Assembly (NCBI GenBank): GCA_034429675.1 | Contig: DAOUFX010000230.1 | Coordinates: 2,339 to 66,338, forward strand | Reading direction: 5' to 3' | Source of the DNA: Anaerolineae bacterium | GTDB taxonomy: Bacteria; Chloroflexota; Anaerolineae; B4-G1; SLSP01 | DNA length: 64,000 nt | Shown: piece after piece, positions 20,228-37,246 of the stretch | Layout: every line of letters starts with the position of its first letter | Position numbering within the stretch: the stretch's first letter is position 1 | Made by a program: the position numbers and the translations under genes | The notes under the pieces: model-generated | Told to the model about the DNA's origin: nothing | Seen by the model: only the letters and a program-made list of their open reading frames with translations | Databases searched by the model: none

Positions 20228-23068
20228 ATGTTGCCTGATTTGCGTCAAATTTTTAACCTATTGGCCTGGTTATTGGCGATCTCCCAATTGGTTTTTGGGC
20301 TTTATATTATTTTCCTAAATCGCGGTCGCCCGGCAAACCGATTGGCCGTGGGTGGAACCTTTGGACTCGTTGCGGTGAATTCGTACGCGTTTGCGCTGCT
20401 TCTGGGCGCTGACGATGTGTCCGTGGCCTTGCATGCGACGTACGTTCTGGCGGCTACTTCTCCCATGCTGGGATGGGCTTTTCTGAGCGATGCTTTGATT
20501 TTGTTGCGGCCTCGCTGGTATGCAAAACGTCTCGCTTTGTGGGTTGGCATTCTCATAGGTTTATTTGCCTTGCCGGTCTTACTTACTTTTGTTGACGTTG
20601 TTTGGGGGACTAATCTCTGGTATTCCGGCCTGGATGTTGACACCTACAAAGTGGGCTCAGTGACATTGATGATGTACACCAGGGGCTATTTCTCCCCGGT
20701 GATTCACGGTGTATTTGGGTATCTGCCCCTCGGATTGTTCCTGATTGGAGTACTGTGGTTGGGACACGTTCGCCCACACCCCGATTTTCCGCGGAGTCAC
20801 TATTGGGTGTGGCCCTTTTTATTGGTTCAGGTGCTGGCGACAGCGATGTATTTTGTCTCCTCGGCTCTATCCGCGCCGATCGTTGTCCCACTTGTTTTCA
20901 ATGGGCTGTGTGTCGGAACCTATGCCATTGCATTTTTCACCCCGGCGCTTCTGGGACACTCTATGCAACGGGGAAGTTTGCGAACACGCCTGACAATTCT
21001 CATTTTTGTCATTGCTGTGCCTATTTCGGTCTTTGGCGTTATGCTGGTAGGATACCAGGCCGTGGGGATGGTCGAGGAAAGCGAGACGCGACGGTTGGCT
21101 GCGCGCAACGATGCTTTAGCTACCAGCATCAATGTATGGCTCAATATTCACGTCAATGCTCTGGCTGAGGTTGCGAAACAACCCGCTATTGTGACAATGG
21201 ATCCTGAACAGCAGGGGCCGGTTCTTAAATTGATGGATGATATTTACTCCAGCGTGTATTTGGTCAGCACCACAGATTTGACCGGGATGAATGTCGCTCG
21301 GAGCGACATGAAAGAGCCCACGTATTACGGTGACCGGCAGTGGTTCTTAAATGCGCGCGCCGGGGTATCTCCGGCGTTGGAGATTGTGCTAGGGCGCACG
21401 AGCGGAGTGCCGGCTTTGGTTGGCGCGATGCCTATCACGCAGACAGACCAGACCATTGTGGGAATCGTGATGTTTGCCAGTACCTTGTCGGATGTCGCCG
21501 CTCAGGTCAAAACTACTGAAATAGGCGAGTCTGGATTCGCTTATATTGTGGATCAGGAAGATCAGATTCTGGCGCATTCCGACCCGGAGGTGACAGCTCA
21601 CGTGACCGATTTCAGCGCTTACCCACCTGTGATGCAGTTGCGCGCCAATGTCGAGGGATTGGTCAAGTTCCGCGACAATTCGGGGCAACGTTGGTGGGCT
21701 TATGTGCGCAGCGCCGGGCCAGGTTTGGGCGTCATTGTTCAACAGCGTGAAGAAGAAGTGTTGCGCGGGACGCGGCAATTTCAGTTGGTCTATTGGGCGG
21801 TCACGTTAGTCGGGGCCTTGTTGCTGACGACTCTGGGATTTATGGCTGTACGGCAGGCTTTCCGCCCGATTTTGACGTTGACCGAAACGGCTCAGGCCAT
21901 TGTGCAGGGGGATTTGGCCCGGCTGGCCCCCGTTGAAAGCGAAGACGAGATCGGCACGTTGGCGCAGACGTTTAATTTGATGACGGCGCAACTGCGCACT
22001 TTGATCGAGACTTTGGAAGAGCGTGTGGCAGAACGCACGAGAGCGTTGGAAAGGCGTGCCGAGTATCTGGCTGTGACGGCGCGAGTGAGCCGGGTAACGG
22101 CCTCGATTTTGGATGTGGACACTCTGCTCACGCGGGTTGCCAATCTGATTTCTGAACGGTTTGGGTTTTACCATGCGGCAATTTTCCTGATTGACGACAG
22201 CGGCGAATGGGCTGTGTTGCGCACCGTTTCTTCTGAAGATGGAAAGCGTATGTTGGCGCGAGGACATCGTTTGCGCGTTGGCGAGCAAGGGATTGTGGGG
22301 TATGTCTCAGGCGCCGGCCGTCCGCGCATTGCTTTGGACGTGGACGAAGATACCGTATGGGTCAAGAATCCCGACTTGCCGAACACCCGTTCGGAGATGG
22401 CTTTGCCTTTGCAGGTACAAAACCAGATCATTGGGGTATTGGATGTGCAGAGCGTGGAACCCAATGCTTTTTCAACCGAGGATGTGGAGACGTTGCGCAT
22501 CCTTGCCGATCAGGTAGCCATTGCGATCCAGAACGCGCGGCAGTTTCGACAGAGCCAACAGATGCTCCGGGATTTACAACATGCCTATAGCGAGCTGGGG
22601 CAGCGGAGTTGGGCGACGTGGACGGCCTCGCATGTAGGGTATCAGTATATGCCGACAGGCGTTACTGCGATTCAGGCCTCGGAAGTGGCGACAGAAACGC
22701 CATCTTCGACGCAAGTGACAGACCCGAATATTTTGTGGGTGCCGTTACAATTGATCGGCGGACGGGTTTTTGGCGCATTGCGTTTGCAACGGGACATTGC
22801 GTACCCCTGGACGGAACAGGAGATTCAATTTGTGCAACAGGCGGGGCAAGCGATTGCGCAGGCATTGGAGGTGTCGCGTTTGCTGGAAGAGGCGCAGCGG
22901 CGAACGACTCGCGATCGTCTGGTTGGGGATATTGCCAATCAGTTGCACACGACGCTCGATCCAGATGTGATTATGAAAACATTGGTGCGTGAGTTAGGCC
23001 GTGTTTTGGGCGCGCGGGTGGCCTCTGTCGAAGTGACCGGTGGGCGTCCTCCCACGGGGATCGTCTAA
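20228..23068 (+). CDS. GAF-array member C: ~8-TM membrane domain + periplasmic Cache-like + TM + HAMP + S-helix + GAF-A + GAF-B; no output domain
   Basis: The HAMP domain is RPILTLTETAQAIVQGDLARLAPVESEDEIGTLAQTFNLMTAQL. The S-helix is LEERVAERTRALERRAEYLAVTARV. GAF-A runs FGFYHAAIFLIDDSGEWAVLRTVSSEDGKRMLARGHRLRVGEQGIVGYV...PDLPNTRSEMALPLQVQNQIIGVLDVQS. The tail is RDRLVGDIANQLHTTLDPDVIMKTLVRELGRVLGARVASVEV. Confidence 0.85.
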   Translation: MLPDLRQIFNLLAWLLAISQLVFGLYIIFLNRGRPANRLAVGGTFGLVAVNSYAFALLLGADDVSVALHATYVLAATSPMLGWAFLSDALILLRPRWYAKRLALWVGILIGLFALPVLLTFVDVVWGTNLWYSGLDVDTYKVGSVTLMMYTRGYFSPVIHGVFGYLPLGLFLIGVLWLGHVRPHPDFPRSHYWVWPFLLVQVLATAMYFVSSALSAPIVVPLVFNGLCVGTYAIAFFTPALLGHSMQRGSLRTRLTILIFVIAVPISVFGVMLVGYQAVGMVEESETRRLAARNDALATSINVWLNIHVNALAEVAKQPAIVTMDPEQQGPVLKLMDDIYSSVYLVSTTDLTGMNVARSDMKEPTYYGDRQWFLNARAGVSPALEIVLGRTSGVPALVGAMPITQTDQTIVGIVMFASTLSDVAAQVKTTEIGESGFAYIVDQEDQILAHSDPEVTAHVTDFSAYPPVMQLRANVEGLVKFRDNSGQRWWAYVRSAGPGLGVIVQQREEEVLRGTRQFQLVYWAVTLVGALLLTTLGFMAVRQAFRPILTLTETAQAIVQGDLARLAPVESEDEIGTLAQTFNLMTAQLRTLIETLEERVAERTRALERRAEYLAVTARVSRVTASILDVDTLLTRVANLISERFGFYHAAIFLIDDSGEWAVLRTVSSEDGKRMLARGHRLRVGEQGIVGYVSGAGRPRIALDVDEDTVWVKNPDLPNTRSEMALPLQVQNQIIGVLDVQSVEPNAFSTEDVETLRILADQVAIAIQNARQFRQSQQMLRDLQHAYSELGQRSWATWTASHVGYQYMPTGVTAIQASEVATETPSSTQVTDPNILWVPLQLIGGRVFGALRLQRDIAYPWTEQEIQFVQQAGQAIAQALEVSRLLEEAQRRTTRDRLVGDIANQLHTTLDPDVIMKTLVRELGRVLGARVASVEVTGGRPPTGIV

Positions 23069-23082
23069 ATACGGGGCGTGGT

Positions 23083-25854
23083 ATGTTGCAAAACTTTGAA
23101 GTGCTCTTAGCGCTGTTTGCTTTCGTCTTGCTCGCGGTAATGCTGGTATGGGTACTGCGCACCCCCCGGCTGCGTGGGTTACAGCGCCGGGGTTTGCTTG
23201 TATTTTGCGCCTTGACCGTGTTCCCGACGTTGTTGGCGTCAACTCTCACTAGTTGGCTCTCCGCCAATATGGTTGAAACTCGCCGGCTAGACCAATTGCG
23301 TATGGCGGCTGACATCAAACAACAGAAGTTTGATTTGTGGTTCGGAGAGTTAGAGCAGACTCTCTTACGTGAGGCGGAACCAGTGCATACGCAACGTCTG
23401 ACGCTTTTGACATCTACACCGGATTCCACCGAATTTAAGTCAGCTTATGCGGCGCAAGCAACGCGCTTCGCCGAGATATTGGCAGCGCAGCTTGATTTTG
23501 AAGCCTTTTCCTTATTGAATGTGCAGGGAGAGGTTATTTTGTCCACTGATGTGTCTGAATTGCTGAAGCAATACTCCGATAAGGATTACTTCCGGGGGGC
23601 TTTGACGGGTGTGTATGTTCAGACGCCGCGGTATTCTGCGACGGCTGCGGCTACGCCGGGGATCATTGCTTATCCGGTATCGGATGATGCGGGCAACGTC
23701 GTGGGGGTTTTTGTGGCGCGAGTGCGCGCCGATGCCTGGTATGAGGTCGTCGGGGAGTTGCTCAAGTTGGGGGAAACAGAGGAGATTTATCTGGTTGATG
23801 CGCGCTACAATCTGGTGACGCCTATACGTCTGAGCGGTGACACGACGTTTTTGCCTTCCACTGCCATGCGAACGGCTATTGACCACCAGGGAGAATACAT
23901 TGGTCGCGTGCGCAATTCCCGTGGGCGGAATGTCTTGGCGATCTATCGTTGGTTGCCGCAATTGAATGTATTGTTGGCGATCGAGGTGGAGCGGTACGAA
24001 ATCTTAAGCGGCATTTGGTTTATCAGCACCGTCAGTCTGGGGATTGCGTTTGTGTTATTAGGGATTTCCGGTGTTTTGGCATACTTGGCGCTGCGCAGTA
24101 TTTCCGTTCCCGTCGCCGAATTGGCCGATGCTGCCAGCAGTGTTGTGCGTGGCGATTGGGCTACAGTTCGTGAATTGCGCGGCAACGATGACCTGGCGCG
24201 ATTGACTCACAAGTTCAATCATATGATCAGTTATTTTCACCAGCGTATGGGCGATTTGGAAGGGCAGGTTGCCAAGCAGATGGGGGTCCTGGAAGGACGC
24301 GCTGCACAGCTCGAGGCCACTATGCAAATTTTGCGCCAGGTGGTCATGTTACGTGATGTGGACGAGTTGCTCACTATGACAGTTACCCGGCTTTCGCAGC
24401 AATTTGGTTTCCACCATGTTGCCGTTTTTCTGTTGGATGATAGCCGTCAACAGGCTATGCTGCGCGCGGCCTCGTCGGTGGCCGGGCGGCAGATGTTAGC
24501 CGAGAAGTTCCATGTGCCGGTGGGGATGGATAACTCAGTGGGTAGTGTTGCTACTCAGAAGAAGCTTCGCATTATGTCGGATTTGAGCGCGGAGAGTGTT
24601 GATTCGGAAACAGGGCTGTTATTGCAGACCCGTTCCCGGGTTTTGATCCCACTCAGTGTGCGCGACGAAGTGATCGGCGTATTGGACGTTCAATCCAATG
24701 AGGCAACGACTTTTACCGTTAGCGGAACGGCACATCTACAAACGGTAGCCGATCAGGTCGCCCTGGCTTTGGATAACGCTCGTTTGTTGACGGCTACCGA
24801 AGAGCGTTTGGGCGAGATTCGCCAGTTGTTGAGCAAGCAGAGCGCCGAAGACTGGCAGCGGTTTTCGCAGGAACGTCCGCATTGGGGCTATACCTACGAC
24901 GGTGTAGAGGTCAAACCTCAGCCGACGACTACTTTTGCAAAGCATTCGCCGCAATTGGTCTTGCCGGTGCAGGAGGGGCAGCAGCTGATCGGCGCGTTTA
25001 GAGCTTTTTGGGATCAGGCCGAGCCCAATTCTTACGATGTAGAGTTGGCGCGGGACATTATCAATCAGGCCAGTCAGGCTTTGGAGAGCGCGCGTTTGTT
25101 TAGCCGGATGCAGGGCGCCCTGGAGGAGGTGGGAGTTTTGTATCGCAGCAGCCAGGCGCTCCTGGCTGCGCGCACGAGCGAACAAATCTTGCGCGCTTTT
25201 GTGGACTATCTGGTTGCGCCGGGGATTGACCGTTGCCTTCTGGCTTTGTTGGAGCCGTATGCTACCGAGGAAGACATGATTGTCCGGGTCGAAGCTGTCT
25301 GGGAATCTGGCCGGGCGAAATCTTCCTTGTTGGGGGATCGTTGGGCGCTTGCGCGAATTCCGGCGCTTGTGGCTGTCGTTCGCGGCGACGCCTCTGCGCG
25401 CCCCTGGGTAATTCCAGACGTCTCAAAACCCAATGTGCATCTGGACAGCACGACGCGTGAGGTTTTTGCCAGTGTCTTCCGTGTCCGCGCTTTGTTGTTG
25501 GTCCCTTTGGCCGTCGCCGGGAAGGTGCTAGGGTGGTTGTTCGTAGAATCCTTGCACGCTCCTTACGCTTTTACCGAGAGAGAAGTGCGTATGTATCGTA
25601 GCCTGGCCGATCAGGCGGCCATTGTGTTACAGAGTTTGCGCCTGTTGACTGAGGTTTCGTTGCGCGCTGACCATGAACGCCGCATCACTTCGATTGCGGC
25701 CGAAATCCGGCGCCACACCGATACTGAGGCGATTTTGCAAACCTCCATTCTTGAGTTGAGCAAGGCGCTCCAAGCCGCAGAGGGTTTTATCCAAATCGGA
25801 TTTGAAACCGATCCTGCGGTTGCGACCGATGGACCGGAGGCGGAGGACAAATGA
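23083..25854 (+). CDS. GAF-array member D: TM + Cache-like + TM + HAMP + three GAF-like domains + conserved tail; no output domain
   Basis: TM helices are at aa 5–25 and ~300–330. The HAMP domain is VPVAELADAASSVVRGDWATV...LARLTHKFNHMISYF. GAF-A runs FGFHHVAVFLLDDSRQQAMLRAASSVAGRQML. The tail is DHERRITSIAAEIRRHTDTEAILQTSILELSKALQAAEGFIQI. Confidence 0.85.
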   Translation: MLQNFEVLLALFAFVLLAVMLVWVLRTPRLRGLQRRGLLVFCALTVFPTLLASTLTSWLSANMVETRRLDQLRMAADIKQQKFDLWFGELEQTLLREAEPVHTQRLTLLTSTPDSTEFKSAYAAQATRFAEILAAQLDFEAFSLLNVQGEVILSTDVSELLKQYSDKDYFRGALTGVYVQTPRYSATAAATPGIIAYPVSDDAGNVVGVFVARVRADAWYEVVGELLKLGETEEIYLVDARYNLVTPIRLSGDTTFLPSTAMRTAIDHQGEYIGRVRNSRGRNVLAIYRWLPQLNVLLAIEVERYEILSGIWFISTVSLGIAFVLLGISGVLAYLALRSISVPVAELADAASSVVRGDWATVRELRGNDDLARLTHKFNHMISYFHQRMGDLEGQVAKQMGVLEGRAAQLEATMQILRQVVMLRDVDELLTMTVTRLSQQFGFHHVAVFLLDDSRQQAMLRAASSVAGRQMLAEKFHVPVGMDNSVGSVATQKKLRIMSDLSAESVDSETGLLLQTRSRVLIPLSVRDEVIGVLDVQSNEATTFTVSGTAHLQTVADQVALALDNARLLTATEERLGEIRQLLSKQSAEDWQRFSQERPHWGYTYDGVEVKPQPTTTFAKHSPQLVLPVQEGQQLIGAFRAFWDQAEPNSYDVELARDIINQASQALESARLFSRMQGALEEVGVLYRSSQALLAARTSEQILRAFVDYLVAPGIDRCLLALLEPYATEEDMIVRVEAVWESGRAKSSLLGDRWALARIPALVAVVRGDASARPWVIPDVSKPNVHLDSTTREVFASVFRVRALLLVPLAVAGKVLGWLFVESLHAPYAFTEREVRMYRSLADQAAIVLQSLRLLTEVSLRADHERRITSIAAEIRRHTDTEAILQTSILELSKALQAAEGFIQIGFETDPAVATDGPEAEDK

Positions 25855-28541
25855 TGAGTTTCTGGTCAAAGAACTTCGCCCGGCGGTTGGTCACTTATTT
25901 TGCGATTTTGCTTGTGTCAACCATGGCTTTGCTGGGGATTCTTGTCTATCCCCTGGTGCGTTCCAGCATGATTGAAGCGCTTTATGCGCGTTTGGATACC
26001 GCACTGGATTTGAAACTGGTCACGATGCGCTATTGGATTCAGGATCAACGCCAGGAAGTGGCCATGCTCGCTGGAAACGCAACGGTTCAGAACCAGGTCG
26101 CTGTGTTGATGAAGAATGACGCCAACAGCGCCGCTTACAAGAAAGCTTATCGTGAACTCTCTTTGAACTTTAATGCGGTAGTATTGCAGAAGGGCGGGTT
26201 ACAGGAGATTTTTGTTTTAACCGAACCGGATGCGCGCGTGTTGATTTCCACAGATACGACCCAAGAGGGTGTTTATCATTCGGATGACGCCTATTTTGTG
26301 CAAGGACGCTCGCAGCTTTATGTTCAAAGTGTCTATGTTGATCCGGATGTTGATGTCCCGATGATGACGGCGTCTTCCCCCATATTTCAAGACGGCAAGT
26401 TGATGGGGGTGCTGGTGGCGCATCTGGATCTCGATCGCATGCACGAGATGCTTTTGGAGCAGCCCGGGTTGGGATCGCGCGGCGATATGTATTTGATGGC
26501 GCGCCCTGGTCGTTTCATTGTTACATCACGCGAGGAATCGCAGACGACCGCGCCTGAGGTAACTTCAGAGGGCATTCAGGCGGCTCTGAGCGGTCAAGAT
26601 GGTCATAGTGTTTATAGGAATTATGCGGGTCGTTCGGTGGTGGGCGCCTATCGTTGGTTAAAGGAATACAATGTGGCCTTTCTGGTCGAGATGGAGGAAC
26701 GTGAATCCATTGTCAAACCATTGCAGCGTATTTTACTGATTTTGCTGGGATGCGGCGCTCTCTTTGGTGTTCTTGCGGTCGGGGTGGGATATGTATTGGT
26801 GCGGCGAAGTATGCGGCCATTGCAGATGTTGAATACCCTGGCGCGACGGATTGCCGACGGCGATTTGCAGCAGACGGCCCCGATTTTGTACGAGGATGAA
26901 GTAGGAACCCTTGCGCGCACATTTAACACGATGACTCAGGAATTGCGTCGTCTGTACGCTGGTCTCGAACAGGAAGTGGCGGCACGTACGCAGACCCTTG
27001 AACAGCGCAATCGCCAATTGGAAGTTGCCGCGCAGGTTGCCAGTGCGGTGTCGGCTATCTATGAGATTGATCGTTTATTGAATGAGACCGTGCGTCTGAT
27101 TGTCACCTATTTTCATTTTGATTATGCTGCGATTTTCATCCTCGATGAAATCGGCGACTCGGTGGCGCTTCAGGCCGCTGCTTCTGGGGGCGAACATTTG
27201 TTGTTGAATCAGCGCTACAAACAGCGACTAGGACAGGGTATCATCGGACGGGTGGCGCAAACCGGGGCTGCGCGGGTCGTGCCGGATGTTGAGATGGATG
27301 CGGATTTTATCCCTAACCCGGATATGCCCGCGATTCGCTCGGAGCTGGCTGTTCCGCTTCTGGGACGTGAGGGAGTCCTGGGAGTTTTGGATGTGCAGTC
27401 TCTCAAACCGGGAGCTTTTACCGAGGAAGACGCCGGGATCTTGCAGATGATGGCCGAACAGATTGCTTTGGCGATTCAGAATGCCCGGTTGCTCAAGGAC
27501 AGCGAGCGAGTCGTGCATGAACTTGAAAGGCGTTATGGCGAGCATACTCGCGATTCCTGGCAATCCCGATTGGCGCGGCAACGTCTGGCCTATCGCTATA
27601 CCGGTATGTCGGTGGAGCCGTTAGCGCCGGAGTCGCCAGCGGCCACTGCCGATGTGTCGGTAGCGCAAACCAGGTTGGTTTGGGATGATGAGCGGGGTCG
27701 CCAGTTGGTGGCGCCTATCCGATTGCGGGACCAGGTGTTGGGTTCCATTGTATTGCGTCAGGGAGTGGGCGACGCCGCCTGGACCGAGGCTGATGTGGCG
27801 ATGTTGGCTTCTACTTGCGAACAGATTGGTCTGGCACTGGACAACGCCCGTTTGTTGGATGAATCCGCCGCGCGCGCCATCCGCGAGAGGGTGTCGAGTG
27901 AGGTCAGCGCGCGGATTCGCGATGCGGCGCTTGATGTCGCATCGGTGTTACAAGTGACGGCCTATGAAATGGCGAAGTTGTCGCAGGCTGCCAGTACCGT
28001 GCATGTGCGCGGCGGCGAGATTGGCGCGACGTATTTGGAGTCTTGCGCTTATGCCTATGATGCCATGTCGGCGCAGCAGCCGGTAGACTCGAGCCTGTTG
28101 TCTTTGACCCGCCTGGTTAGCTCGCATTGTTTGGTTATCCCGTTGATGTTGCGTGAGCAAATCGTGGGCGCCGTGCGTTTGGAACGGGCTCCCGAACAAT
28201 TCTCCTGGCTGCCGGAAGAAGTTCAGATGGTGGAGGAGATCAGTGTACAGGTGGGTTTGGCCCTGGAAAACGCACAATTGCTGGTTGAGAGCCGGCAGCG
28301 TGCTGCACGTCAGCAGCAACTTAACGAGATTTCTCGGAATTTTTCTCAGTCTTTGGATATGGACGTTATGTTGCGCACCGCAGCGCGCGAGCTTGGTCGA
28401 ATACCAGGGGTTACTGAGGCCGGTATTCACATAACGGCGCCGGTGATGCAAGGCACAGCGCAAGGGGTGGCGCCAGAAGCGGCGCAAGAGACTGCGCCGG
28501 AAGCCGCGCCGGGCGCGGCAACCACGGAGAGTCAGGAATAG
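25851..28541 (+). CDS. GAF-array member E: TM + Cache-like + TM + HAMP + S-helix + GAF-A + GAF-B + GAF-C + tail; no output domain
   Basis: An ATGA start/stop overlap joins it to the previous gene. The HAMP domain is RPLQMLNTLARRIADGDLQQT...EVGTLARTFNTMTQEL. The S-helix is LEQEVAARTQTLEQRNRQLEVAAQV. GAF-A runs FHFDYAAIFILDEIGDSVALQAAASGGEHLL...PDMPAIRSELAVPLLGREGVLGVLDVQS. The tail is ERVSSEVSARIRDAALDVASVLQV...LNEISRNFSQSLDMDVMLRTAARELGRIPGV. Confidence 0.85.
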   Translation: MMSFWSKNFARRLVTYFAILLVSTMALLGILVYPLVRSSMIEALYARLDTALDLKLVTMRYWIQDQRQEVAMLAGNATVQNQVAVLMKNDANSAAYKKAYRELSLNFNAVVLQKGGLQEIFVLTEPDARVLISTDTTQEGVYHSDDAYFVQGRSQLYVQSVYVDPDVDVPMMTASSPIFQDGKLMGVLVAHLDLDRMHEMLLEQPGLGSRGDMYLMARPGRFIVTSREESQTTAPEVTSEGIQAALSGQDGHSVYRNYAGRSVVGAYRWLKEYNVAFLVEMEERESIVKPLQRILLILLGCGALFGVLAVGVGYVLVRRSMRPLQMLNTLARRIADGDLQQTAPILYEDEVGTLARTFNTMTQELRRLYAGLEQEVAARTQTLEQRNRQLEVAAQVASAVSAIYEIDRLLNETVRLIVTYFHFDYAAIFILDEIGDSVALQAAASGGEHLLLNQRYKQRLGQGIIGRVAQTGAARVVPDVEMDADFIPNPDMPAIRSELAVPLLGREGVLGVLDVQSLKPGAFTEEDAGILQMMAEQIALAIQNARLLKDSERVVHELERRYGEHTRDSWQSRLARQRLAYRYTGMSVEPLAPESPAATADVSVAQTRLVWDDERGRQLVAPIRLRDQVLGSIVLRQGVGDAAWTEADVAMLASTCEQIGLALDNARLLDESAARAIRERVSSEVSARIRDAALDVASVLQVTAYEMAKLSQAASTVHVRGGEIGATYLESCAYAYDAMSAQQPVDSSLLSLTRLVSSHCLVIPLMLREQIVGAVRLERAPEQFSWLPEEVQMVEEISVQVGLALENAQLLVESRQRAARQQQLNEISRNFSQSLDMDVMLRTAARELGRIPGVTEAGIHITAPVMQGTAQGVAPEAAQETAPEAAPGAATTESQE

Positions 28542-28546
28542 AGACT

Positions 28547-31336
28547 ATGGCGCCAAAAAAAGCACGATACGGCAAAAAACAAGACCGACCTCCAACGATT
28601 GGTTTGTTGATCGCCCATTCCCGTGATACTTATGAGAATTCTCTGGTGGTTGATATGTCAGCTGCAGCCGGCAAGTTGGGCGCTCGATTGATTTGTTATG
28701 TTGGCAGTGAGCTCTATCGTGAAATGCCGGAAAATGTGATCTTCGATCTGGTTTCATCGGAAAGAATAGATGGGCTTATTATCAGTCCCTCTCTCGGCCA
28801 CAATTTTGACAAGGAGCGTTTGCGCGCGTTTTGTCAGCGTTATGCTCCTTTGCCTATTGTAAGCGGCGCATTGGGTCTTGAGGAGATTCCTCAGGTGATT
28901 CCTGATGGCTACAGAGGAATGCGCCAGTTGGTGGATCACATGATCGAAGTACATGGATGCCGGCGTATGGTTTTTATCCGTGGCCCTGAAGGTCAGGCCG
29001 AGGCGACTGAGCGTTATCGCGCTTATACCGAGTCGTTGGATGCTCATAAGATAGCTCTCGATCCGGCATTGATCCTCCCCGGCAATTTTACCGAAAGGAT
29101 GGCCTACCGCACCCTGGAAGGACTGTTGGCGAGCGGCGTATCCTTTGATGCGGTTGTCGCCGTCAATGATGATTCAGCTTTGGGCGCGCTGCGAGCTTTG
29201 CAGGATCGCCACATTCGCGTCCCGGAGGATGTCGCCCTTACCGGTTTCGACGATGTGGAGGCTTCTCGTAATCGGAGCGTACCCTTTACCACGGTACGCC
29301 AGTTGTTTACGATGTCCGCTGAATGTATGATAAACCTGCTGATGCAGCAAATCCAGGGCGAGGATGTTCCCCCCGTCGTCGTTATACCGACCGAGTTGGT
29401 CATTCGTCGTTCATGTGGTTGTGTGGCCGATTCGATTCGTCAGGTTACAGTTGACGCGCCTTCTCGCATCATAGACTCGTCGCAGCCGGAGATGCCGCTT
29501 CCTGACAGAATCCCATCGGATTTGTGGACTGCGTTTTTGAATGATTTGATGAGTGAGGAGCATGCTAATTTCCTGGGTATCTTGGATCAGAAGGTGCGCC
29601 AGGTTTATGATGAGCGCGGTGATGTTGCGGCCTGGCAAGACACGTTGACGGAGCTGCGACGTTATGCATTGTCTTACATCGCCCTTCAGCAAATTCGCGA
29701 CCCTGGCTGTTTTGACGATCAGGTGAATCTACAAGCCGAGAATTTGCTCCAGCAGGGGCGAGTGTTGGTCAGCGAGGCGGCGCAACGACTTGGCAGCTTG
29801 TTGCACTACGCAGATACTCGCGCTCTGGTAGATTTCCAATATCTTGACCAGGCCCTGGCGACGGTTCTGGATTTGCACGAGTTGCCCGACGCAATCCGCA
29901 CACACTTGCCGTCCTTGGGAGTTCAATACTGTTATTTGGTTTTGCTTGAAGAAACTCGTTCCCTGCAATCGGCCCGACTGTTGTTGGCGTACTCCGATAG
30001 GGTGGCGCATTTTTATGCGGAAAGCCCGACGTTTGATGCGCGATGGTTGTTACCCGATGAGCTATGGGCCGGCAGTCAGCACCAGCATAGCATTGTGGTT
30101 CCGCTTGTGTTGCGAGAGCGGGTATATGGATTTGCCTATATGGATTTTGGAACGTCGCAGGGAAGGATTTACGAGCGACTGGGCAATCAAATCGGCGGGG
30201 TTATTTCTCGTGCACAGTTGATGGCTCAACAGCAGAAGGTGCAACATGAGGTCGAGCGGCTGTTAACCGATGTCCAACGTCGCGCAGCGCTGTTGACCGG
30301 CGCCGCTGAAATCTCGCGAGCGACCACCTCATTGACGAATTTATCCGATCTGCTCACAGAAGCCGTCAACTTGATGTATGACCGTTTCCATTTGTATTAT
30401 GCGGGCATTTTTCTGGTAGACGAGAACCGTCAGTGGGCTGTTTTGAGCGCCGGCACCGGTGAGGCTGGCCGTTTGATGTTGAAGCAAGGGCACAAATTGG
30501 AGATCGGCGGGACTTCAATGATTGGAATGTGCATTACGCAGCGACAAGCGCACATCACGTTCGACGTTGCGCACGATGTGCGGCTGCGTCGCAATCCGTT
30601 GCTGCCGGAGACGCGCTCGGAAATGGCGTTGCCGTTGATCAGCCGCGACCGTGCGATTGGCGCGATGACCATTCAATCTGCACAGCCCAATGCTTTTTCG
30701 GAAGATGATGTTACCGCCTTGCAGACAATGGCCGACCAGTTGGCGAATGCTATTGAGAATGCGCGGCTGTTTGAACAAATGGAACAGAGCCGCCGTGAAT
30801 TGGAGATCGCCTCCGGGCATTATACGCAGGAGGCCTGGCAACAATTTGTCAGCGGAACCGGGCAGTTGGGATATCGCTCGCACCTTTTGGGCGTTAAACC
30901 GGCGGCTGAGATGCACCTTGAAGCGCAAGAAGCCCTGCGACAGAACGCGCCGGTGGTCACTAATCTGATCGCCGAGACCGGCGCGTCGTCCGGCAGCGCC
31001 CTGGGAGTCCCGGTGCGGTTGCGCAATCAAGTGTTGGGCGTATTGAATTTGCGCTTTGAAAGCGAATCTGTCCCGCCGGAAACGGTGGCCTTAGTTGAGC
31101 AGATTGCAGATCGCCTGGCGATTTCCCTGGAAAGCGCGCGGTTGTTGCAGGAAACGTTGAGCACTGCCGAGCGGGAGCAACGCATCGGTCAAGTCACCGG
31201 GCGGATGCGCGAGAATTTGGATGTAGATGCGGTGGTGCGAACTGCTGCCGAGCAGATTCGCGAGGCCATGGATTTGTCGAGTGTGACGATTCGCCTGTCC
31301 CCTCATTCACGACTATCGGACGAGGATGACGCATGA
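28547..31336 (+). CDS. GAF-array member F: LacI/PurR-type periplasmic-binding-protein-fold (type I) ligand-binding domain, without HTH, + helical region + GAF-A + GAF-B + tail; no output domain
   Basis: The N-terminal ~290 aa carry sugar-binding-domain motifs (TIGLLIAHSRDTYENSL, IDGLIISPSL, RRMVFIRGPEGQAEATERYRAY, VVAVNDDSALGALRALQDRHIRVPEDVALTGFDD). No N-terminal HTH is present. GAF-A runs FHLYYAGIFLVDENRQWAVLSAGTGEAGRLMLKQGHKLEIGGTSMIGMCI...PLLPETRSEMALPLISRDRAIGAMTIQS. The tail is REQRIGQVTGRMRENLDVDAVVRTAAEQIREAMDLSSVTIRL. Confidence 0.8.
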   Translation: MAPKKARYGKKQDRPPTIGLLIAHSRDTYENSLVVDMSAAAGKLGARLICYVGSELYREMPENVIFDLVSSERIDGLIISPSLGHNFDKERLRAFCQRYAPLPIVSGALGLEEIPQVIPDGYRGMRQLVDHMIEVHGCRRMVFIRGPEGQAEATERYRAYTESLDAHKIALDPALILPGNFTERMAYRTLEGLLASGVSFDAVVAVNDDSALGALRALQDRHIRVPEDVALTGFDDVEASRNRSVPFTTVRQLFTMSAECMINLLMQQIQGEDVPPVVVIPTELVIRRSCGCVADSIRQVTVDAPSRIIDSSQPEMPLPDRIPSDLWTAFLNDLMSEEHANFLGILDQKVRQVYDERGDVAAWQDTLTELRRYALSYIALQQIRDPGCFDDQVNLQAENLLQQGRVLVSEAAQRLGSLLHYADTRALVDFQYLDQALATVLDLHELPDAIRTHLPSLGVQYCYLVLLEETRSLQSARLLLAYSDRVAHFYAESPTFDARWLLPDELWAGSQHQHSIVVPLVLRERVYGFAYMDFGTSQGRIYERLGNQIGGVISRAQLMAQQQKVQHEVERLLTDVQRRAALLTGAAEISRATTSLTNLSDLLTEAVNLMYDRFHLYYAGIFLVDENRQWAVLSAGTGEAGRLMLKQGHKLEIGGTSMIGMCITQRQAHITFDVAHDVRLRRNPLLPETRSEMALPLISRDRAIGAMTIQSAQPNAFSEDDVTALQTMADQLANAIENARLFEQMEQSRRELEIASGHYTQEAWQQFVSGTGQLGYRSHLLGVKPAAEMHLEAQEALRQNAPVVTNLIAETGASSGSALGVPVRLRNQVLGVLNLRFESESVPPETVALVEQIADRLAISLESARLLQETLSTAEREQRIGQVTGRMRENLDVDAVVRTAAEQIREAMDLSSVTIRLSPHSRLSDEDDA

Positions 31337-33711
31337 GCAAGCTGTTAAAACGCCTTCTGGCCTTTCAACAATGGCCATTATTTACGAAGTCGTATGCCGC
31401 CATTCTGCTCATTGGCTGGGGGACGTTGCTTTTCATGACGTTCATGGACGCCCGTTCCTTGTATGTGCGTTTGGGCGATCAGATCCGTGAGAATTTTGCG
31501 GCTTTGTCAACGCAGCAGATGTCCAAGATTGTGGACGTTTTGGTCCATCATATAGCTCTGGTTCGCACCGTTGCGTTGAATGCGACCGTGATCGAGGAAG
31601 CGGCGGCATCCTCTGAGCGTTATTCGGGGGATCCGGTTGCCGAACTGGCTGCTTTGAACCAGACCTGGCAGAATGCCGCCGTGGACGATCCGGTGGTGCA
31701 AGATGTGATCAATCCGGATAAGAATGCTCTGACGGCACAGTTGTTGGGCTATATGAAAGGATTCCCCGACTATGACAGCCTTCTGGTTACTGATCGGTAT
31801 GGCGGGGTGATCGCCGCCACGTACCGTCCGACGGATTATGCTTGCACTGATCAGCCCTGGTGGCAGGCTGCTTATGGAGAAGGAACGGGGCATTTAAGCG
31901 TCGCTGTCCTCGATGAAGTTACCGGAATGAAGGTGTCGGTGGCTTTGCCCATCCTCGGGGAAGATAGTGCGACGGTAATGGGTGTTGTGCGAGCAACTTT
32001 TCATTTTGAGAGCATCAAGGATCTGCTGGATGAGTTGTTTGCCAGTTATCATGTCGGCGCGGCGTTGTTTGACGCCAACCGGACCATGCTTGTAGCCAGC
32101 CTGCCCCCCACTACCGGCGCTTACGTCAATTCGGATTGGTTAACATCGGAGGCTTACAATCGTCGGCGTTCCTGGCAGGAGTTGTCGTTCGAGAACGGCG
32201 AGCCTGCTTTGGTGGGGTACAGTTTCATCAAGAAGTTGACGGCAGCTTCTCGCGACGTTGTAGATGAGGCCCTTTATGAACTGGATTGGTCGTTGTTGGT
32301 TTATGCGCCACGGTCCGATGTGTATCTTCCGTTGATTCGTGCTCTATGGGGTGTCTATCTTCGGGCCGCAGTTTGGGGCGTGGGATTGATGGTAGCGGGG
32401 TTCTTCCTCGTGCGCTTCTTTAGCGGGCCGCTTTTGCAGCTATTGGGCGTGGTTGCCCAGGAGGCTACCGGTGATCGTAATGTGCGCGCCTGGATTTATG
32501 CTGCGGATGAGGTCGGTAAATTAGCGCAACATATCAATCGTCTGATTGAAGAGAAGCAGGCTTTGCAACAAGGTGTAGAGCAGCGCTCCATTGAACGTGA
32601 GCTTGAGCAGAAGCGTCGCCAACGCGAGCTTGAAACGACTGCGGCTATCGGCGCCGTCACGTCGGCGACGTTGGAGCTGAACGCTTTGATTGCTCAGGCT
32701 GTAGAAATTGTCCACGATAGTTTTGGATTGTATTTTGTGGGCGTATTCCTGCTCAATGAAACTCGCTCCTGGGCCGTATTACATGGCGGCACCGGCGAAG
32801 CCGGGCAGCTGTTATTGTCCAGAGGGTATCGCGCGCGCGTTGACATCGGGAGTATTGGCCAATGTATCACAGAAGGCCGGGCAGTGGTAGATCGTGATGT
32901 GAGTGCTTCTGTCGCCACAGGATTGCCGGAATTGCCCTATACGCGTTCAGAACTGGCCTTGCCGCTGCGTTCTCGCGGCGATGTTTGGGGCGCGCTCTCC
33001 GTTCACAGTTATCATCAGGATACCTTTGATGGCGACCTGGCCGTGGTTTTGCAAATTATTGCCGACCAAATTGCTGTTGCCATTGATAGTATTCGTCTCT
33101 TCGATGCACGTCAGGAAGCGATGCGCAGCCTCCAGCGTGCGTATGGGGAGGCCAGCCGTGAGGCGTGGGAATCCCTGTTGAAAACCCGCGACAGTCTGGG
33201 GGGTGGCTATCAGGCCAAGCGCGCCGGATCGGTCAAGTTGACGCCGACTTCGCCGGAGTCCTGGCGTCCTGACGTGCAGAACGCCTGGCAAGAGGAATGC
33301 ATGGTTCAAAGCGACGATGCGGCTTCCCAAGAGCATCGCATGGCTTTGCCGGTTGTCGTGCGCGGCGTGGTTATTGGTGTGATTGACGTCGCGAAACCGT
33401 TTGCCGCCGGGGCATGGACGCCGGTTGAAATTGCGGAATTGGAGACGTTGACCTATGAGATCGGCGTGGCTTTGGAGAATGCTCGTCTGTATGAAGATGC
33501 GCGCAGTCGCGCGGTGCGGCAGCGCTTGTTGAGCGATGTTTCCAGCCGCATTCGCTCCCCGTTGACCATAGATGCTGTCTTGCAGACTGCGGCGCGAGAA
33601 ATGCGCGATCTGTTGGGTCTGGATGAGGCCGAGGTACGATTGGCCGAACAGTTTGACGCCCGGACCGGGACCGGGCCTTTGGCAGATACGGCAACGCATC
33701 AGCATAAGTAA
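31333..33711 (+). CDS. GAF-array member G: TM + Cache-like + TM + HAMP + S-helix + GAF-A + GAF-B + tail; no output domain
   Basis: An ATGA overlap joins it to the previous gene. The N-terminal TM helix is ILLIGWGTLLFMTFM and the second TM is ~LRAAVWGVGLMVAGFFLV. The HAMP domain is FSGPLLQLLGVVAQEATGDRNVRAWIYAADEVGKLAQHINRLIEE. GAF-A runs FGLYFVGVFLLNETRSWAVLHGGTGEAGQLLL...GSIGQCI...LPELPYTRSELALPLRSRGDVWGALSVHS. The tail is RQRLLSDVSSRIRSPLTIDAVLQTAAREMRDLLGLDEAEVRL. Confidence 0.85.
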   Translation: MSKLLKRLLAFQQWPLFTKSYAAILLIGWGTLLFMTFMDARSLYVRLGDQIRENFAALSTQQMSKIVDVLVHHIALVRTVALNATVIEEAAASSERYSGDPVAELAALNQTWQNAAVDDPVVQDVINPDKNALTAQLLGYMKGFPDYDSLLVTDRYGGVIAATYRPTDYACTDQPWWQAAYGEGTGHLSVAVLDEVTGMKVSVALPILGEDSATVMGVVRATFHFESIKDLLDELFASYHVGAALFDANRTMLVASLPPTTGAYVNSDWLTSEAYNRRRSWQELSFENGEPALVGYSFIKKLTAASRDVVDEALYELDWSLLVYAPRSDVYLPLIRALWGVYLRAAVWGVGLMVAGFFLVRFFSGPLLQLLGVVAQEATGDRNVRAWIYAADEVGKLAQHINRLIEEKQALQQGVEQRSIERELEQKRRQRELETTAAIGAVTSATLELNALIAQAVEIVHDSFGLYFVGVFLLNETRSWAVLHGGTGEAGQLLLSRGYRARVDIGSIGQCITEGRAVVDRDVSASVATGLPELPYTRSELALPLRSRGDVWGALSVHSYHQDTFDGDLAVVLQIIADQIAVAIDSIRLFDARQEAMRSLQRAYGEASREAWESLLKTRDSLGGGYQAKRAGSVKLTPTSPESWRPDVQNAWQEECMVQSDDAASQEHRMALPVVVRGVVIGVIDVAKPFAAGAWTPVEIAELETLTYEIGVALENARLYEDARSRAVRQRLLSDVSSRIRSPLTIDAVLQTAAREMRDLLGLDEAEVRLAEQFDARTGTGPLADTATHQHK

Positions 33712-33725
33712 AAGGGAGAGACCAG

Positions 33726-35444
33726 ATGTTTTCCTGGATTGCACGCTTATTGAATCCACCGACCTTCAGCAGGGATGAGGAAAAGTCGCGGCAGGCGCGT
33801 TTGTTAGCCATGGTGGTGCGGATTGTTTTGGCGATGGCCATACTCCTGATCCTGGCCGGATTGGTTGCGATGGGACTAAGCTGGCGCGCCGGAGAGCCGG
33901 TGTGGTCTTCGACGGTGTTTTGGTGGTACGTGTTTGCCCTGCTCCTTTTTGTGCTGTCGGGAATCGTGCAGTTTCTGTCCCATGCCGGGCATGTGCGTCC
34001 TGCCAGCATTGTTTTAACCGTGACGATAGGGTGCCTGTTCATATACGGACATTGGTTGACCAGAGTGGGCATCCGTTCTCCGCTTTTCTTAGGCTATATC
34101 CTGGTCGCCTTTGTCGCCGGGTTGTTGTTGGGACGCCGTTGGACGGTGATTGTGGCGGGCGTAAGTATACTTCTGGCCGGCTTCTTGCTTTTTGCCGAGC
34201 ATACCGGTTTGTGGGGCGTGCGCGATATTGCTGAGTTGCCCTGGTTAGCTTCAGGCGGGAGTATGAGCCTTTACGTGGTCGCTGTGGCGCTTTTCTATGT
34301 CGCGTTGAGCAACTTTGACTTGTCTCTAAAGCGGGCAAGGGAGGTTAACCAGGAGTTGGATATTTTCCGAGCCTCGCTTGAGGCGCGTGTTGAGGCGCGC
34401 ACCCGTGATTTGTCGCGGCGCGCGCGATACCTGGAAGCTACGGCGGAAGTGGCGCGTTACGTTAGCTCGGAACTGGCGATGGCTGAATTGCTTATGCGTA
34501 TCGTCAGATTGATCAGTGAACAGTTTGGGTTCTATCACGCCGGTGTTTTTCTGTTAGACCCTACCGGCGCGTGGGCTGAGTTGCAGGCAGCCTCCAGTCC
34601 GGGGGGGCAGGCGATGTTGGCCCGTGGTCATCGTCTGGGTGTAGGACAACAAGGACTTGTGGGATACGTGACTGCCCGTGGTGAGCCACGGGTGGCTTCG
34701 GATATCGGGGACGACGCGGTGTTCTTTGATAATCCCGACTTACCGGAGACCCGTTCGGCGATGGCGCTCCCCTTGCGTGTTGGCGGGCGCATCATCGGGG
34801 CGCTCGATGTGCAGAGCAAGGAATCGGCGGCTTTTAGCCAGGAAGATGTCGCCGTCCTGCAAATTTTGGCCGACCAGGTTGCCGTCGCGATTAGCAATGC
34901 CCGGCTTTTCGAGCGTCTGCAAGAGAGTGTTGCTGCCGAACGTCGCGCCTATGGGGAATTGAGCTATCAAGCGTGGGCTGAAGTACTCAAAGAACAAGGC
35001 GAGTTGGGTTACATTGACAATGTCGCCGGGACTTCCATCGTGAAAGGCGCGCCGATGCCCGATGCTATGCAGTTGGCGGGCAGGGAGGCCACGATTGTCC
35101 AGGAGGAAGAAACCGTGTCCATTCCGGTTACCGTTCAGGAGGGAGAAGGCGTGTTGGGGGTGGTGCGGCTGCGCAAACCCGAGGGCACAGGCGCCTGGAC
35201 GCCGGATCAGGTGTCATTGATGCAGGACATTGTCCAGCAGTTAGGCGTCGCGTTGGAAAGAGCGCGGCTGTATCAGGATTCGCAGCAGGTGGCGATTCGT
35301 GAGCGGTTGGTCAGTGAGGCGACCAGCCGTATGCGGCAGACGTTGGATGTAGAAGCCGTCTTGAAAACGGCGGCGGACGAAATCTATCAGGCATTGCAGT
35401 TGGATGAAATTGTCGTGCGCCTGGCGACTAAACACGACGAGTAG
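33726..35444 (+). CDS. GAF-array member H: polytopic membrane N-domain + S-helix + GAF-A + GAF-B + tail; no output domain
   Basis: GGGAGAG lies 6 nt before the ATG. There are ~6 TM helices. The S-helix is LEARVEARTRDLSRRARYLEATAEVAR. GAF-A runs FGFYHAGVFLLDPTGAWAELQAASSPGGQAMLARGHRLGVGQQGLVGYV...PDLPETRSAMALPLRVGGRIIGALDVQS. The tail is RERLVSEATSRMRQTLDVEAVLKTAADEIYQALQLDEIVVRL. Confidence 0.85.
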   Translation: MFSWIARLLNPPTFSRDEEKSRQARLLAMVVRIVLAMAILLILAGLVAMGLSWRAGEPVWSSTVFWWYVFALLLFVLSGIVQFLSHAGHVRPASIVLTVTIGCLFIYGHWLTRVGIRSPLFLGYILVAFVAGLLLGRRWTVIVAGVSILLAGFLLFAEHTGLWGVRDIAELPWLASGGSMSLYVVAVALFYVALSNFDLSLKRAREVNQELDIFRASLEARVEARTRDLSRRARYLEATAEVARYVSSELAMAELLMRIVRLISEQFGFYHAGVFLLDPTGAWAELQAASSPGGQAMLARGHRLGVGQQGLVGYVTARGEPRVASDIGDDAVFFDNPDLPETRSAMALPLRVGGRIIGALDVQSKESAAFSQEDVAVLQILADQVAVAISNARLFERLQESVAAERRAYGELSYQAWAEVLKEQGELGYIDNVAGTSIVKGAPMPDAMQLAGREATIVQEEETVSIPVTVQEGEGVLGVVRLRKPEGTGAWTPDQVSLMQDIVQQLGVALERARLYQDSQQVAIRERLVSEATSRMRQTLDVEAVLKTAADEIYQALQLDEIVVRLATKHDE

Positions 35445-35458
35445 ACGAGGCAGAGTTT

Positions 35459-37246
35459 ATGCAAGACCGGCAACGAAGAACGTCAGGAAGCCTGGGTGGA
35501 ATACGCGATCGCACTCTGGCGGCATCCGATCTACAAGTATGGCGCGCGCAGTTGGTGCAATATGTGCTGTGGATCATGTCCGCGGTCGGGGTGTTGCCGA
35601 CGTTTTTTGGGGCTTATTATCGTTTTTCGCAGCAGCGTTATGGCGCAGTCCTGTTTTTTATTCTGGCCTATGCCCTGCTTCTTTCCCTTGCCTTTGCGCG
35701 CCGATTGAATTATGTCATCCGGGTCCGCGCGATGTTGTTTCTGCTTTACAGTTTGGCGGTTATTGACTTTTTTGCGGATGGACCGGCCGGCGGCGCGCGC
35801 GTGATGCTGTTGGCGGCGGTTTTCGTCGCCGCGATTTTCCTGGGCGGGCGCGCCGGTCTTTACTCATTATTGCTTGCCCTGGCCATCAATGGGTTCTTTG
35901 CTTACCTTTATCTGACCAGTTTTTTGCCGGCGCCGGCGCCGATTGATTTTGTAGACCCCCGGCGTTGGGGCAGCGGCTTTTTTGTGCTGGCGATGTTGAG
36001 CGGATTGGTTGTCGCCAGTATTGACTACCTCATTCCACGGCTGATTGAGGCGATGTCGCAAAGCGGGCGGTTGGCGCGTGAGCTGACCGACTCTCAGACC
36101 CGTTTGGAAGAGTTGGTGGCGCAACAGGGGATGAATCTGGAGCGCCGTGGCATGCAATTGCAGGCCGCCGCCCAGCTGGCTCGCGAAGCCACCGGGTTTC
36201 AGGACGTGAGGCAGATTCTAAACGAGACGGTCCAGCTGATTTCGGAACGGTTTGGATTTTACCAGGCCGGTATCTTTTTGTTGGACAAGGAGCGCGAGTA
36301 TGCTGAGTTGCGCGCGGCCTCTTCTGAAGGGGGGCGTCTGTTACTGGCGCGCGGCTACCGGCAACAGGTAGGCGTAGGTATTGTCGGTTATGTGGCGCAA
36401 AGCGGCGAACCCCGCATGGCGCTGGATGTGGACAATGACGCTGAATTTCTCAGTACGCCCGACTTGCCCGACACTCGTTCGGAGATCGCTTTGCCGTTGC
36501 GTACCAGAGAGGGCGTTATTGGGGTGTTGGACGTGCAGTCTTTGGAATCTGAGTCATTTACTGATGATGACATGGTCATTCTCCAGACGCTTGCCGATCA
36601 GATTGCTCTGGTGATTTCCAATGCCCAACTTTTGCAGCAGGTAGAATCGCAAGTCGAGGCCGAACGGCAGTTCTATCAGCAGCTGAGCAATCGCGCCTGG
36701 GCGGATCTCATCGCGACGGCGCGGACGCCGGGATTTGCGCGGAATTCCGCGGGCGTTTTCCCGGCGGCGAATATCTGGCGTCCCCGTATGGAGCAGGCCG
36801 TGCAGTCCGGCGCGCTGACCTTTGATGAGCAGGAAGCGGCGGCGGTTTCTGTGCCGATTCGGGTGCGCGGACAGGTCGTGGGCGTGATTGATGCGCGAAA
36901 ACGTGGCGGAACCAGCGCCTGGACTCAAGACGAACTTGAGTTGTTGGAGACGCTGAGTGCGCAGTTGGACCCGGCATTGGATAGCGCGCAATTGTATCAT
37001 AATAGCCAGTTGCTTGCCAAGCGGGAGCAGGTGACGCGTGAAATTGCATCGAGGATGCGAGAAACTTTGGATGCGGACATGATCCTGCAAACGGCCGCCC
37101 GCGAGATCGGCGATGCGTTGGGGCTGGCCGATTTTGTGATTCGGGTGGGGACCTCCGATCAGCTTTTGTCGCGGAGTACTTATTCTGACGTTGAATCGGA
37201 TGTGGATGGTAATCCCGAAGCGAGGGGGATGAAGGATGTTGCGTAA
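35459..37246 (+). CDS. GAF-array member I: polytopic membrane N-domain + coiled coil + GAF-A + GAF-B + tail; no output domain
   Basis: There are ~6 TM helices. The coiled coil is LARELTDSQTRLEELVAQQGMNLERRGMQLQAAAQLAR. GAF-A runs FGFYQAGIFLLDKEREYAELRAASSEGGRLLLARGYRQQVGVGIVGYV...PDLPDTRSEIALPLRTREGVIGVLDVQS. The tail is REQVTREIASRMRETLDADMILQTAAREIGDALGLADFVIRV. Confidence 0.85.
   Translation: MQDRQRRTSGSLGGIRDRTLAASDLQVWRAQLVQYVLWIMSAVGVLPTFFGAYYRFSQQRYGAVLFFILAYALLLSLAFARRLNYVIRVRAMLFLLYSLAVIDFFADGPAGGARVMLLAAVFVAAIFLGGRAGLYSLLLALAINGFFAYLYLTSFLPAPAPIDFVDPRRWGSGFFVLAMLSGLVVASIDYLIPRLIEAMSQSGRLARELTDSQTRLEELVAQQGMNLERRGMQLQAAAQLAREATGFQDVRQILNETVQLISERFGFYQAGIFLLDKEREYAELRAASSEGGRLLLARGYRQQVGVGIVGYVAQSGEPRMALDVDNDAEFLSTPDLPDTRSEIALPLRTREGVIGVLDVQSLESESFTDDDMVILQTLADQIALVISNAQLLQQVESQVEAERQFYQQLSNRAWADLIATARTPGFARNSAGVFPAANIWRPRMEQAVQSGALTFDEQEAAAVSVPIRVRGQVVGVIDARKRGGTSAWTQDELELLETLSAQLDPALDSAQLYHNSQLLAKREQVTREIASRMRETLDADMILQTAAREIGDALGLADFVIRVGTSDQLLSRSTYSDVESDVDGNPEARGMKDVA

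Follow-up and report, generated by a model that had tools for sequence, protein, structure and literature searches.

What does a ligand-binding domain of the LacI repressor type do when it has no DNA-binding domain to control? The question is raised by a gene at positions 28547..31336 of a 64-kb stretch of DNA from an Anaerolineae bacterium, the whole of which is called the window below. Its product of 929 amino acids (aa) begins with such a domain and ends with two GAF domains and a short tail, and it lies in an array of 20 co-directional paralogues that share this ending. The protein is a soluble LacI-type flytrap without a helix-turn-helix (HTH), set inside a conserved input module. We hold it, with moderate confidence, to be a cytoplasmic one-polypeptide signal receptor whose non-enzymatic C-terminal transmitter acts on a partner common to the array. 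The gene is built as follows, PBP standing for periplasmic-binding protein and pLDDT for the predicted local distance difference test.

28547..31336, + strand: whole gene, 929 aa; soluble LacI-type sensor lacking an HTH, C-terminus GAF-GAF-tail
28592..29422, + strand: PBP type I (LacI/GalR-type) ligand-binding domain, aa 16-292 (Pfam and PDB sequence matches)
29411..29422, + strand: S-C-G-C motif, aa 289-292, at the junction of PBP core and helical domain and at the exact end of the LacI core
29516..29860, + strand: helical bundle, aa ~324-438; four helices, the last of 48 residues (AlphaFold2, pLDDT mostly above 90)
29873..30160, + strand: degenerate GAF-like domain, aa ~443-538 (AlphaFold2 and Foldseek)
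30161..30337, + strand: long, coiled-coil-like helix connecting the input module to GAF-A, aa 539-597
30338..30757, + strand: GAF-A, aa 598-737, GTGEAG subtype with an NPxLPxTRSE loop (GAF_2 profile positions 3-136 of 136)
30797..31144, + strand: GAF-B, aa 751-866, a compact yet complete GAF beginning with a conserved W-helix
31145..31300, + strand: linker helix and tail, aa 867-918; a conserved ER(E/D)Q helix, then a partial GAF

A LacI-type core without its DNA-binding head

A preliminary description, made from the sequence alone, had assigned the first ~290 aa to a LacI/PurR-type PBP domain, and database searches bore this out. Pfam Peripla_BP_3 matched aa 130-290 (E 9e-27, 94.6 bits against a cut-off of 26.5) and Peripla_BP_1 matched aa 17-285 (E 1e-11). 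A PDB sequence search aligned aa 30-290 with LacI cores at E 9e-36 to 1e-17, the best match being an ancestral LacI (9nt3, E 9e-36), and the order of motifs is that of LacI-type regulatory domains. The alignments took in residues 78-328 of LacI (1lbg) and 53-330 of PurR, with PurR residue 53 opposite residue 10 of the protein; homology therefore begins just past the repressor HTH and hinge. A review counts Peripla_BP_3 among the solute-binding protein families from which receptor sensor domains are built (PMC10443332).

The same description had reported that the HTH is missing, and every search for one was negative. A Pfam scan of the protein found no HTH family even at E <= 1. The frame is closed upstream by a stop at 28415, and the 43 in-frame codons before the ATG contain no ATG, GTG or TTG; they read GRYSHNGAGDARHS..., are Gly/Arg/Ala-rich and belong, in another frame, to the 3' end of the gene before. 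When the HTH regions of LacI and PurR were compared with the whole window by tblastn, nothing was returned below E 0.1. A search with aa 1-578 yielded 532 scored homologues, the best 120 of which are used for the conservation, HTH and output counts given here; among these 120, no N-terminal extension is able to hold an HTH, and the single extension of 69 residues is of low complexity. An upstream open reading frame (ORF) encoding an HTH, named beforehand as the observation that would count against the claim, was looked for and not found. The candidate explanation of a mis-called start or hidden HTH is ruled out by the upstream codons, the tblastn search of the window and the N-termini of the homologues. 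The protein has the PBP type I core of LacI/GalR repressors and neither their N-terminal HTH nor their hinge helix (~60 aa together); without the HTH that defines that family, it cannot be counted among LacI-family repressors.

Nor does the protein look exported. It has no transmembrane-like window (maximum 19-residue hydropathy 1.21), and its N-terminus, MAPKKARYGKKQDRPP, carries no export or lipoprotein signal such as marks the solute-binding proteins of ATP-binding-cassette (ABC) transporters, a hydrophobic window being absent throughout. Transmembrane-like windows are found in 17 of the 20 array paralogues, the only exceptions being this protein, a PAS protein and a 213-aa protein.

Positions of the ligand pocket were mapped by aligning the family to E. 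coli LacI and PurR (with the numbering checked against known contact residues). Retention among the homologues was:

LacI R197, R156 in the protein: kept in 120/120
LacI N246, N207 in the protein: kept in 87/120
LacI D247, D208 in the protein: kept in 119/120
LacI D274, D235 in the protein: kept in 107/120
LacI W220, F181 in the protein: aromatic in about 100/120
PurR Y73, Y29 in the protein: kept in 70/120
LacI Q291, Q252 in the protein: kept in 81/120

Mean identity across the 120 homologues is ~30%, and the pocket positions are nonetheless retained. An Arg/Asn/Asp set with an aromatic lid is the means by which LacI-family proteins grip sugars and bases. The protein is credibly a cytoplasmic small-molecule receptor, and conservation of the pocket supports a small polar or aromatic ligand while leaving the exact compound undefined. 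The preliminary description had proposed a cytoplasmic receptor for a sugar or nucleoside: solubility and the kept pocket positions agree with the first part, and a sugar or nucleoside would be a plausible ligand. No family-specific profile scored near its cut-off.

Two further features of the domain are lacking in LacI and PurR. In the S-C-G-C motif, S289, C290 and C292 are invariant (120/120) and G291 is kept in 115/120, where LacI has T-T-L-A. His136 is a one-residue insertion relative to LacI and is likewise invariant in 120/120 (aa 131-136 are encoded at 28937..28954). Judging from this conservation, the two cysteines and His136 could form a metal or redox site.

A portable input module and a common C-terminal half

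The region between the flytrap and GAF-A was modelled with AlphaFold2 over aa 291-590 from an alignment of 32 sequences (alignment A1). The model (pLDDT 88, predicted template-modelling score, pTM, 0.72) shows four helices, an alpha/beta domain and a 50-residue helix, as expected from the helical region and degenerate GAF described earlier. The alpha/beta domain matched structures of PtsP, PDE6, NifA and other GAF proteins with a Foldseek probability of 1.0 and a target TM-score of up to 0.60. Alignment A1 gave no significant sequence match in Pfam or PDB, only weak GAF matches (GAF_2, E 1e-3), and the helical bundle had no Pfam or PDB sequence match. The connecting helix (model helix 249-299, pLDDT 94-98) has its counterpart, by alignment, in the helix that the paralogues carry between HAMP and GAF.

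Most of the 120 best matches cover 95-100% of the 578-aa query. Because the alignments are near full length, the conserved unit is the whole region of ~580 aa, comprising PBP domain, helical bundle and GAF-like domain, and not the PBP domain alone. The protein aligns over aa 1-578, has the invariant S-C-G-C junction and lacks an HTH, like the rest of the family. Outputs joined to the module were counted by hand from the match table of the 120 best homologues:

HisKA/HATPase: 46/120
GAF: 30/120
unrecognised, or truncated: 13/120
STAS: 12/120
STAS plus GAF: 8/120
PP2C: 5/120
signalling domain of methyl-accepting chemotaxis proteins (MCPs): 3/120
GGDEF: 1/120
HD-GYP: 1/120
unrelated enzyme domain, joined to the PBP part alone: 1/120

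Fused to so many different outputs, the ~580-aa region behaves as a sensory input module. The preliminary description had seen the PBP domain as the fused unit; that a fusion exists holds, and what it missed is that the composite module is what joins outputs. Its view that PBP-GAF fusions are unusual has to be given up: GAF-containing outputs, with or without STAS, occur in 38 of the 120 best homologues, 472 encoded relatives turned up when one genome was scanned for each GTDB species, and 38 loci have a similar array. The fusion is common and of moderate note, and the conserved array with its putative transmitter is the part that deserves follow-up. All 74 loci that were kept come from metagenome-assembled genomes (MAGs) of Chloroflexota (Anaerolineae, Thermoflexia, Caldilineaceae, Herpetosiphon and others); among the source names of the homologues found with aa 1-578 there are, in addition, a few Polyangia and one Firmicutes MAG. 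A genome scan using the protein singly as query gave no matches. An identical protein is present on seven public contigs, a cluster look-up returned neither a name nor an accession, and the 929-aa frame is intact, with 76-81% identity kept in two other assemblies. We found no description of the ~580-aa module in the literature.

In the C-terminal half, the domains named in the preliminary description were all recovered. GAF-A is matched by Pfam GAF families (GAF_2/GAF/GAF_3; best stretch aa 598-737, E 6e-29, 101.5 bits against 28.6). Its GTGEAG motif is common to four paralogues (those at 31333, 49625, 52047 and 56704), and the domain is highly conserved among paralogues, including the loop adjoining the usual GAF pocket. 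The AlphaFold2 model of GAF-B (alignment A2, pLDDT 88) consists of a helix, two strands, a helix, three strands and a long helix, and it matches GAF structures with a Foldseek probability of 1.0; the cAMP-binding GAF of Lcd1 is among these fold matches, at merely 23-24% identity over ~90 columns. GAF-B is followed by a 46-residue helix, a turn, a 15-residue helix, an ordered extended segment and a short acidic end (model helices 94-139 and 143-157, then ordered coil at pLDDT 85-88). In the alignment of the 20 paralogues, the tail motif of ORF 25851..28541 runs into a complete extra GAF and then another tail. This shows the tail to be a connecting helix together with the opening helix and strand of an additional GAF that is otherwise absent. 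One additional complete GAF stands between GAF-B and tail in each of the ORFs 23083..25854 and 25851..28541.

Over ~340 aa, GAF-A, GAF-B and tail are 33-40% identical to those of the membrane-sensor paralogues, and the module is the same one, as had been proposed. A Pfam scan of the protein found neither HisKA nor HATPase_c, and no catalytic or DNA-binding output domain. Among the paralogues, the frequency of the top residue is 0.54-0.58 in the helical spine and tail versus 0.30-0.43 in the GAF-B beta core, which makes the former the most conserved part of the GAF-B/tail module and the latter the least. This pattern is easier to reconcile with a protein contact in common than with a common ligand. 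Two other interpretations of the tail were rejected: a degenerate HisKA H-box ('S-x-R-M-R-E-P-L' resembling 'S-H-E-L-R-T-P-L'), as no HisKA was found at E <= 1 and the motif enters a full GAF in ORF 25851, and a circularly permuted GAF-B completed by the tail, as the model has a complete GAF before the tail.

An exhaustive profile search with GAF-B plus tail matched 98,733 proteins at E <= 1e-3 and 11,746 at E <= 1e-30. Many of the matches are proteins of 1,100-3,950 aa with 6-21 matches, in which GAF domains are the only ones recognised or are accompanied by dCache and HAMP; in several of these (representatives P0137-P0286) the full module forms the extreme C-terminus. No description of the GAF-B plus tail module was found in the literature.

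The array and the proposed signalling role

A gap of 5 nucleotides (nt) separates the gene from the one before it, and its own stop overlaps the ATG (31333) of the next. From 13413 to the end of the window, all genes lie on its strand with short or negative spacing. They comprise a head of three genes, recognised with Pfam, and the array itself, whose members have varied inputs:

13413..16612, + strand: array head
13413..13814, + strand: receiver-only response regulator
13854..14273, + strand: receiver-only response regulator
14258..16612, + strand: HAMP-GAF-HisKA-HATPase kinase
16652..63561, + strand: array of 20 co-directional paralogues ending in GAF-A/GAF-B/tail
MASE11 input: 5 genes
dCache plus HAMP input: 7 genes
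HAMP alone: 2 genes
six PAS domains: 1 gene, encoding a soluble protein of 1,526 aa
PBP module: 1 gene, the one described here
unrecognised membrane domains: 3 genes
48966..49607: array member without input, consisting of coiled coil, GAF-B and tail only; 213 aa, soluble

The 213-aa protein shows that the C-terminal module can stand alone. The array's other cytoplasmic input is the 1,526-aa protein (40444..45024), in which about six PAS and several GAF domains precede the common tail. Past the end of the window, the source contig (a JGI metagenome contig of 84,250 bp) holds two further array members and a TctC binding protein; TctC was not found as a recurring member of related arrays. At least 23 co-directional genes of the sensor-GAF-GAF-tail kind stand behind the head.

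The kinase is homologous to the array proteins over aa 212-556 only, ending where HisKA starts. GAF-B and tail therefore occupy the kinase-core position of a homologue.

The arrangement recurs in other genomes. The head trio lies upstream of an array in six further species (L016, L018, L022, L035, L036 and L038; E 1e-41 to 1e-90), the second receiver and kinase in a seventh (L040), and the kinase alone at the locus edge in three more. Gene order is identical in the MAG with a 76%-identical protein, and in the MAG with a 46%-identical protein a similar array follows a kinase of the same type. Of the fetched loci, 38 have 2-10 co-directional ORFs with the full module within ~24 kb, and in the ~190 module-bearing ORFs of these loci the module ends 1-36 aa before the stop, with few exceptions. 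Literature searches on MASE11, slr1658/9 and GAF arrays in Anaerolineae turned up no account of arrays headed by two receivers and a kinase.

We propose the following as to what kind of ligand is bound, which way the signal travels and which partner receives it. The LacI/GalR-type flytrap would bind a small polar or aromatic ligand, most likely a sugar, a sugar derivative or a nucleobase or nucleoside. Ligand-induced closure of the flytrap, which is joined through the invariant S-C-G-C junction to the helical bundle and degenerate GAF, would be relayed by these two domains and the long helix to the C-terminal module of GAF-A, GAF-B and tail. GAF-B and tail would pass the signal on by a protein contact formed by the helical spine and the truncated-GAF tail, and the best candidates for the partner would be the conserved kinase and the two receiver-only regulators. 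A non-enzymatic transmitter is the most likely role of this module because it has no catalytic domain, is common to more than 20 paralogues and stands at the position of HisKA-HATPase.

Several points weigh against this proposal. R197 and D274 are also structural in LacI-family proteins, and their conservation is no proof of binding. Searches with NCBIfam LacI-family equivalogs (PurR, RbsR, CytR, GalR, CcpA and others) gave best scores of 62-107 bits against cut-offs of 330-557. GAF-A might itself bind a common small molecule, which could make the C-terminal module a second input and not an output. The long GAF-only proteins that match the GAF-B plus tail profile could point to a scaffold role, and the monomer model leaves the packing surface of the tail unseen.

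Some of these points feed rival explanations. The PBP domain could have ceased to bind a small molecule and serve as a scaffold for dimerisation or protein docking, with the sensing left to one of the GAF domains. The CcpA core, which binds HPr-Ser-P, is a model for such a role; CcpA-type cores are among the PDB matches, the equivalog search assigns no ligand and GAF-A is strongly conserved among paralogues. We think this unlikely: homologues of such low mean identity show little or no variation at the canonical pocket positions, the middle GAF is degenerate by sequence, and within the GAF-B/tail module it is the GAF-B beta core that is conserved least. A redox or metal sensor, in which the Cys-Gly-Cys at the end of the PBP domain with His131 and His136 is a metal site or a reversible disulphide controlling the transducer, would explain why S289, C290, C292 and H136 are invariant and are not found at those positions in LacI or PurR. 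However, H131 occurs in LacI too and the classical pocket, needless for a pure redox sensor, is also conserved, which makes this explanation improbable.

It is equally improbable, in our estimate, that the GAF-GAF-tail proteins are structural or scaffold proteins and not transmitters, with the PBP domain merely tethering a metabolite or enzyme. The large number of profile matches, including GAF-only proteins with 6-21 repeats, and a ParA/MinD-type ATPase within one related array speak for it. Yet array members start with classical sensory inputs (dCache, HAMP, PAS, MASE11), a two-component system heads the array in several species, and in other proteins kinases, PP2C phosphatases and GGDEF domains are under the control of this PBP input module. 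The only rival that we regard as excluded is a decayed or mis-annotated LacI repressor that lost its HTH by frameshift or wrong start. Its PBP domain is indeed nearest to LacI-family repressors, but the 43 upstream codons hold no start or HTH-like sequence and belong to the preceding gene, a LacI-type HTH is absent from the window and from the 120 homologues, and the frame is intact at 76-81% identity in the two other assemblies.

Returning to the proposed receptor with a shared transmitter, a broader reading can be offered tentatively, and with considerably less confidence. The cluster may be an undescribed multi-input system of Chloroflexota in which many receptors are coupled through GAF-B and tail to one set of kinase and regulators, as chemoreceptors share CheA. 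If so, it would combine extracellular inputs (dCache, MASE11 or those working with solute-binding proteins) with intracellular ones (PAS, LacI-type PBP), and the LacI-type module would be its cytoplasmic metabolite input.

Known systems and other features of the window

The regulatory domains of LacI, PurR, RbsR and CytR share the PBP type I fold, and their ligand-contact positions are retained in the protein. In contrast to LacI/GalR proteins, it lacks an HTH and hinge helix, its signal would exit C-terminally rather than N-terminally, it adds the S-C-G-C motif and the His insertion, and a helical bundle replaces the LacI tetramerisation helix. E. coli XylR has a LacI/GalR-type ligand-binding domain and, at its C-terminus, an AraC DNA-binding domain (PMC3561964). 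It is the closest studied precedent, having an N-terminal LacI-type sugar-binding domain without the LacI HTH and a C-terminal output; in XylR, however, the output is a DNA-binding domain joined directly, whereas the protein described here has a transducer of ~290 aa, three more domains and no DNA-binding domain. A PBP-like fold also characterises the sensor domain of BT1754, a hybrid two-component sensor of Bacteroides. This periplasmic sensor domain binds fructose directly (PMC3404733). Both proteins thus have a domain resembling a sugar-binding protein built in as a signalling input, but BT1754 is periplasmic with kinase, receiver and AraC outputs, and the protein from the array is cytoplasmic with no catalytic or DNA-binding output.

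Tandem-GAF modules (PDE2/5/6, CyaB2 and the GAF-PHY of phytochromes) have, like this protein, successive GAF domains linked by long helices, and the longest Foldseek alignments were to PDE and phytochrome GAF-PHY structures. Such modules regulate a C-terminal catalytic domain, whereas here the chain stops one helix and one strand into another GAF. Sets of MCPs that share one CheA resemble the array in logic only, with diverse inputs, one C-terminal module, one kinase and receiver-only regulators; the array paralogues have no MCP signalling domain, the cluster has no CheA or CheW, and its kinase is a classical sensor kinase of the HisKA type.

Few ligand sensors are as well understood or as much engineered as LacI-type flytraps. 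In the present case, an entire family of such domains has lost the DNA-binding head and works through a conserved C-terminal transducer able to drive at least eight kinds of output. The module thus offers a natural pattern for connecting LacI-like sensors to kinases, phosphatases or second-messenger enzymes. The profile matches also bring to light a very large class of GAF-only signalling proteins in Chloroflexota that lacks annotation, about 12,000 sequence clusters matching the C-terminal module at E <= 1e-30; the array is a tractable entry point to this class.

In several related arrays, stand-alone solute-binding proteins (NMT1-type/NMT1/THI5-like and Peripla_BP_6) lie between the sensor genes, which suggests membrane sensors that depend on binding proteins:

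L005, 13442..14425: solute-binding protein
L016, 16531..17514: solute-binding protein
L022, 17977..19017: solute-binding protein
L036, 17691..18701: solute-binding protein
L036, 21710..22891: solute-binding protein
L038, 8249..9274: solute-binding protein

Another related locus, L010, has the ParA/MinD-type ATPase gene (6274..7056) inside its array, and its terminal array gene (17759..19495) fuses an enzyme dependent on pyridoxal phosphate (PLP) to a receiver domain. Within the window, positions 47006..48953 encode two tandem slr1658/slr1659-type pairs (DUF6272/SiaB-like plus STAS-like, above NCBIfam cut-offs), which sit mid-array in a stretch of lower GC content (0.497). The pairs were rejected as a general partner of the array, being absent from 80/80 related loci, and they may be an inserted partner-switch cassette. 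Across 12000..18000, GC content falls from ~0.58 to 0.48-0.51 at the boundary between housekeeping genes (RecJ, HutH, TPR proteins, a YfhO-like membrane protein) and the signalling cluster. At 61801..63561, the longest ORF starts at 61801, and the public gene call starts at 61831.

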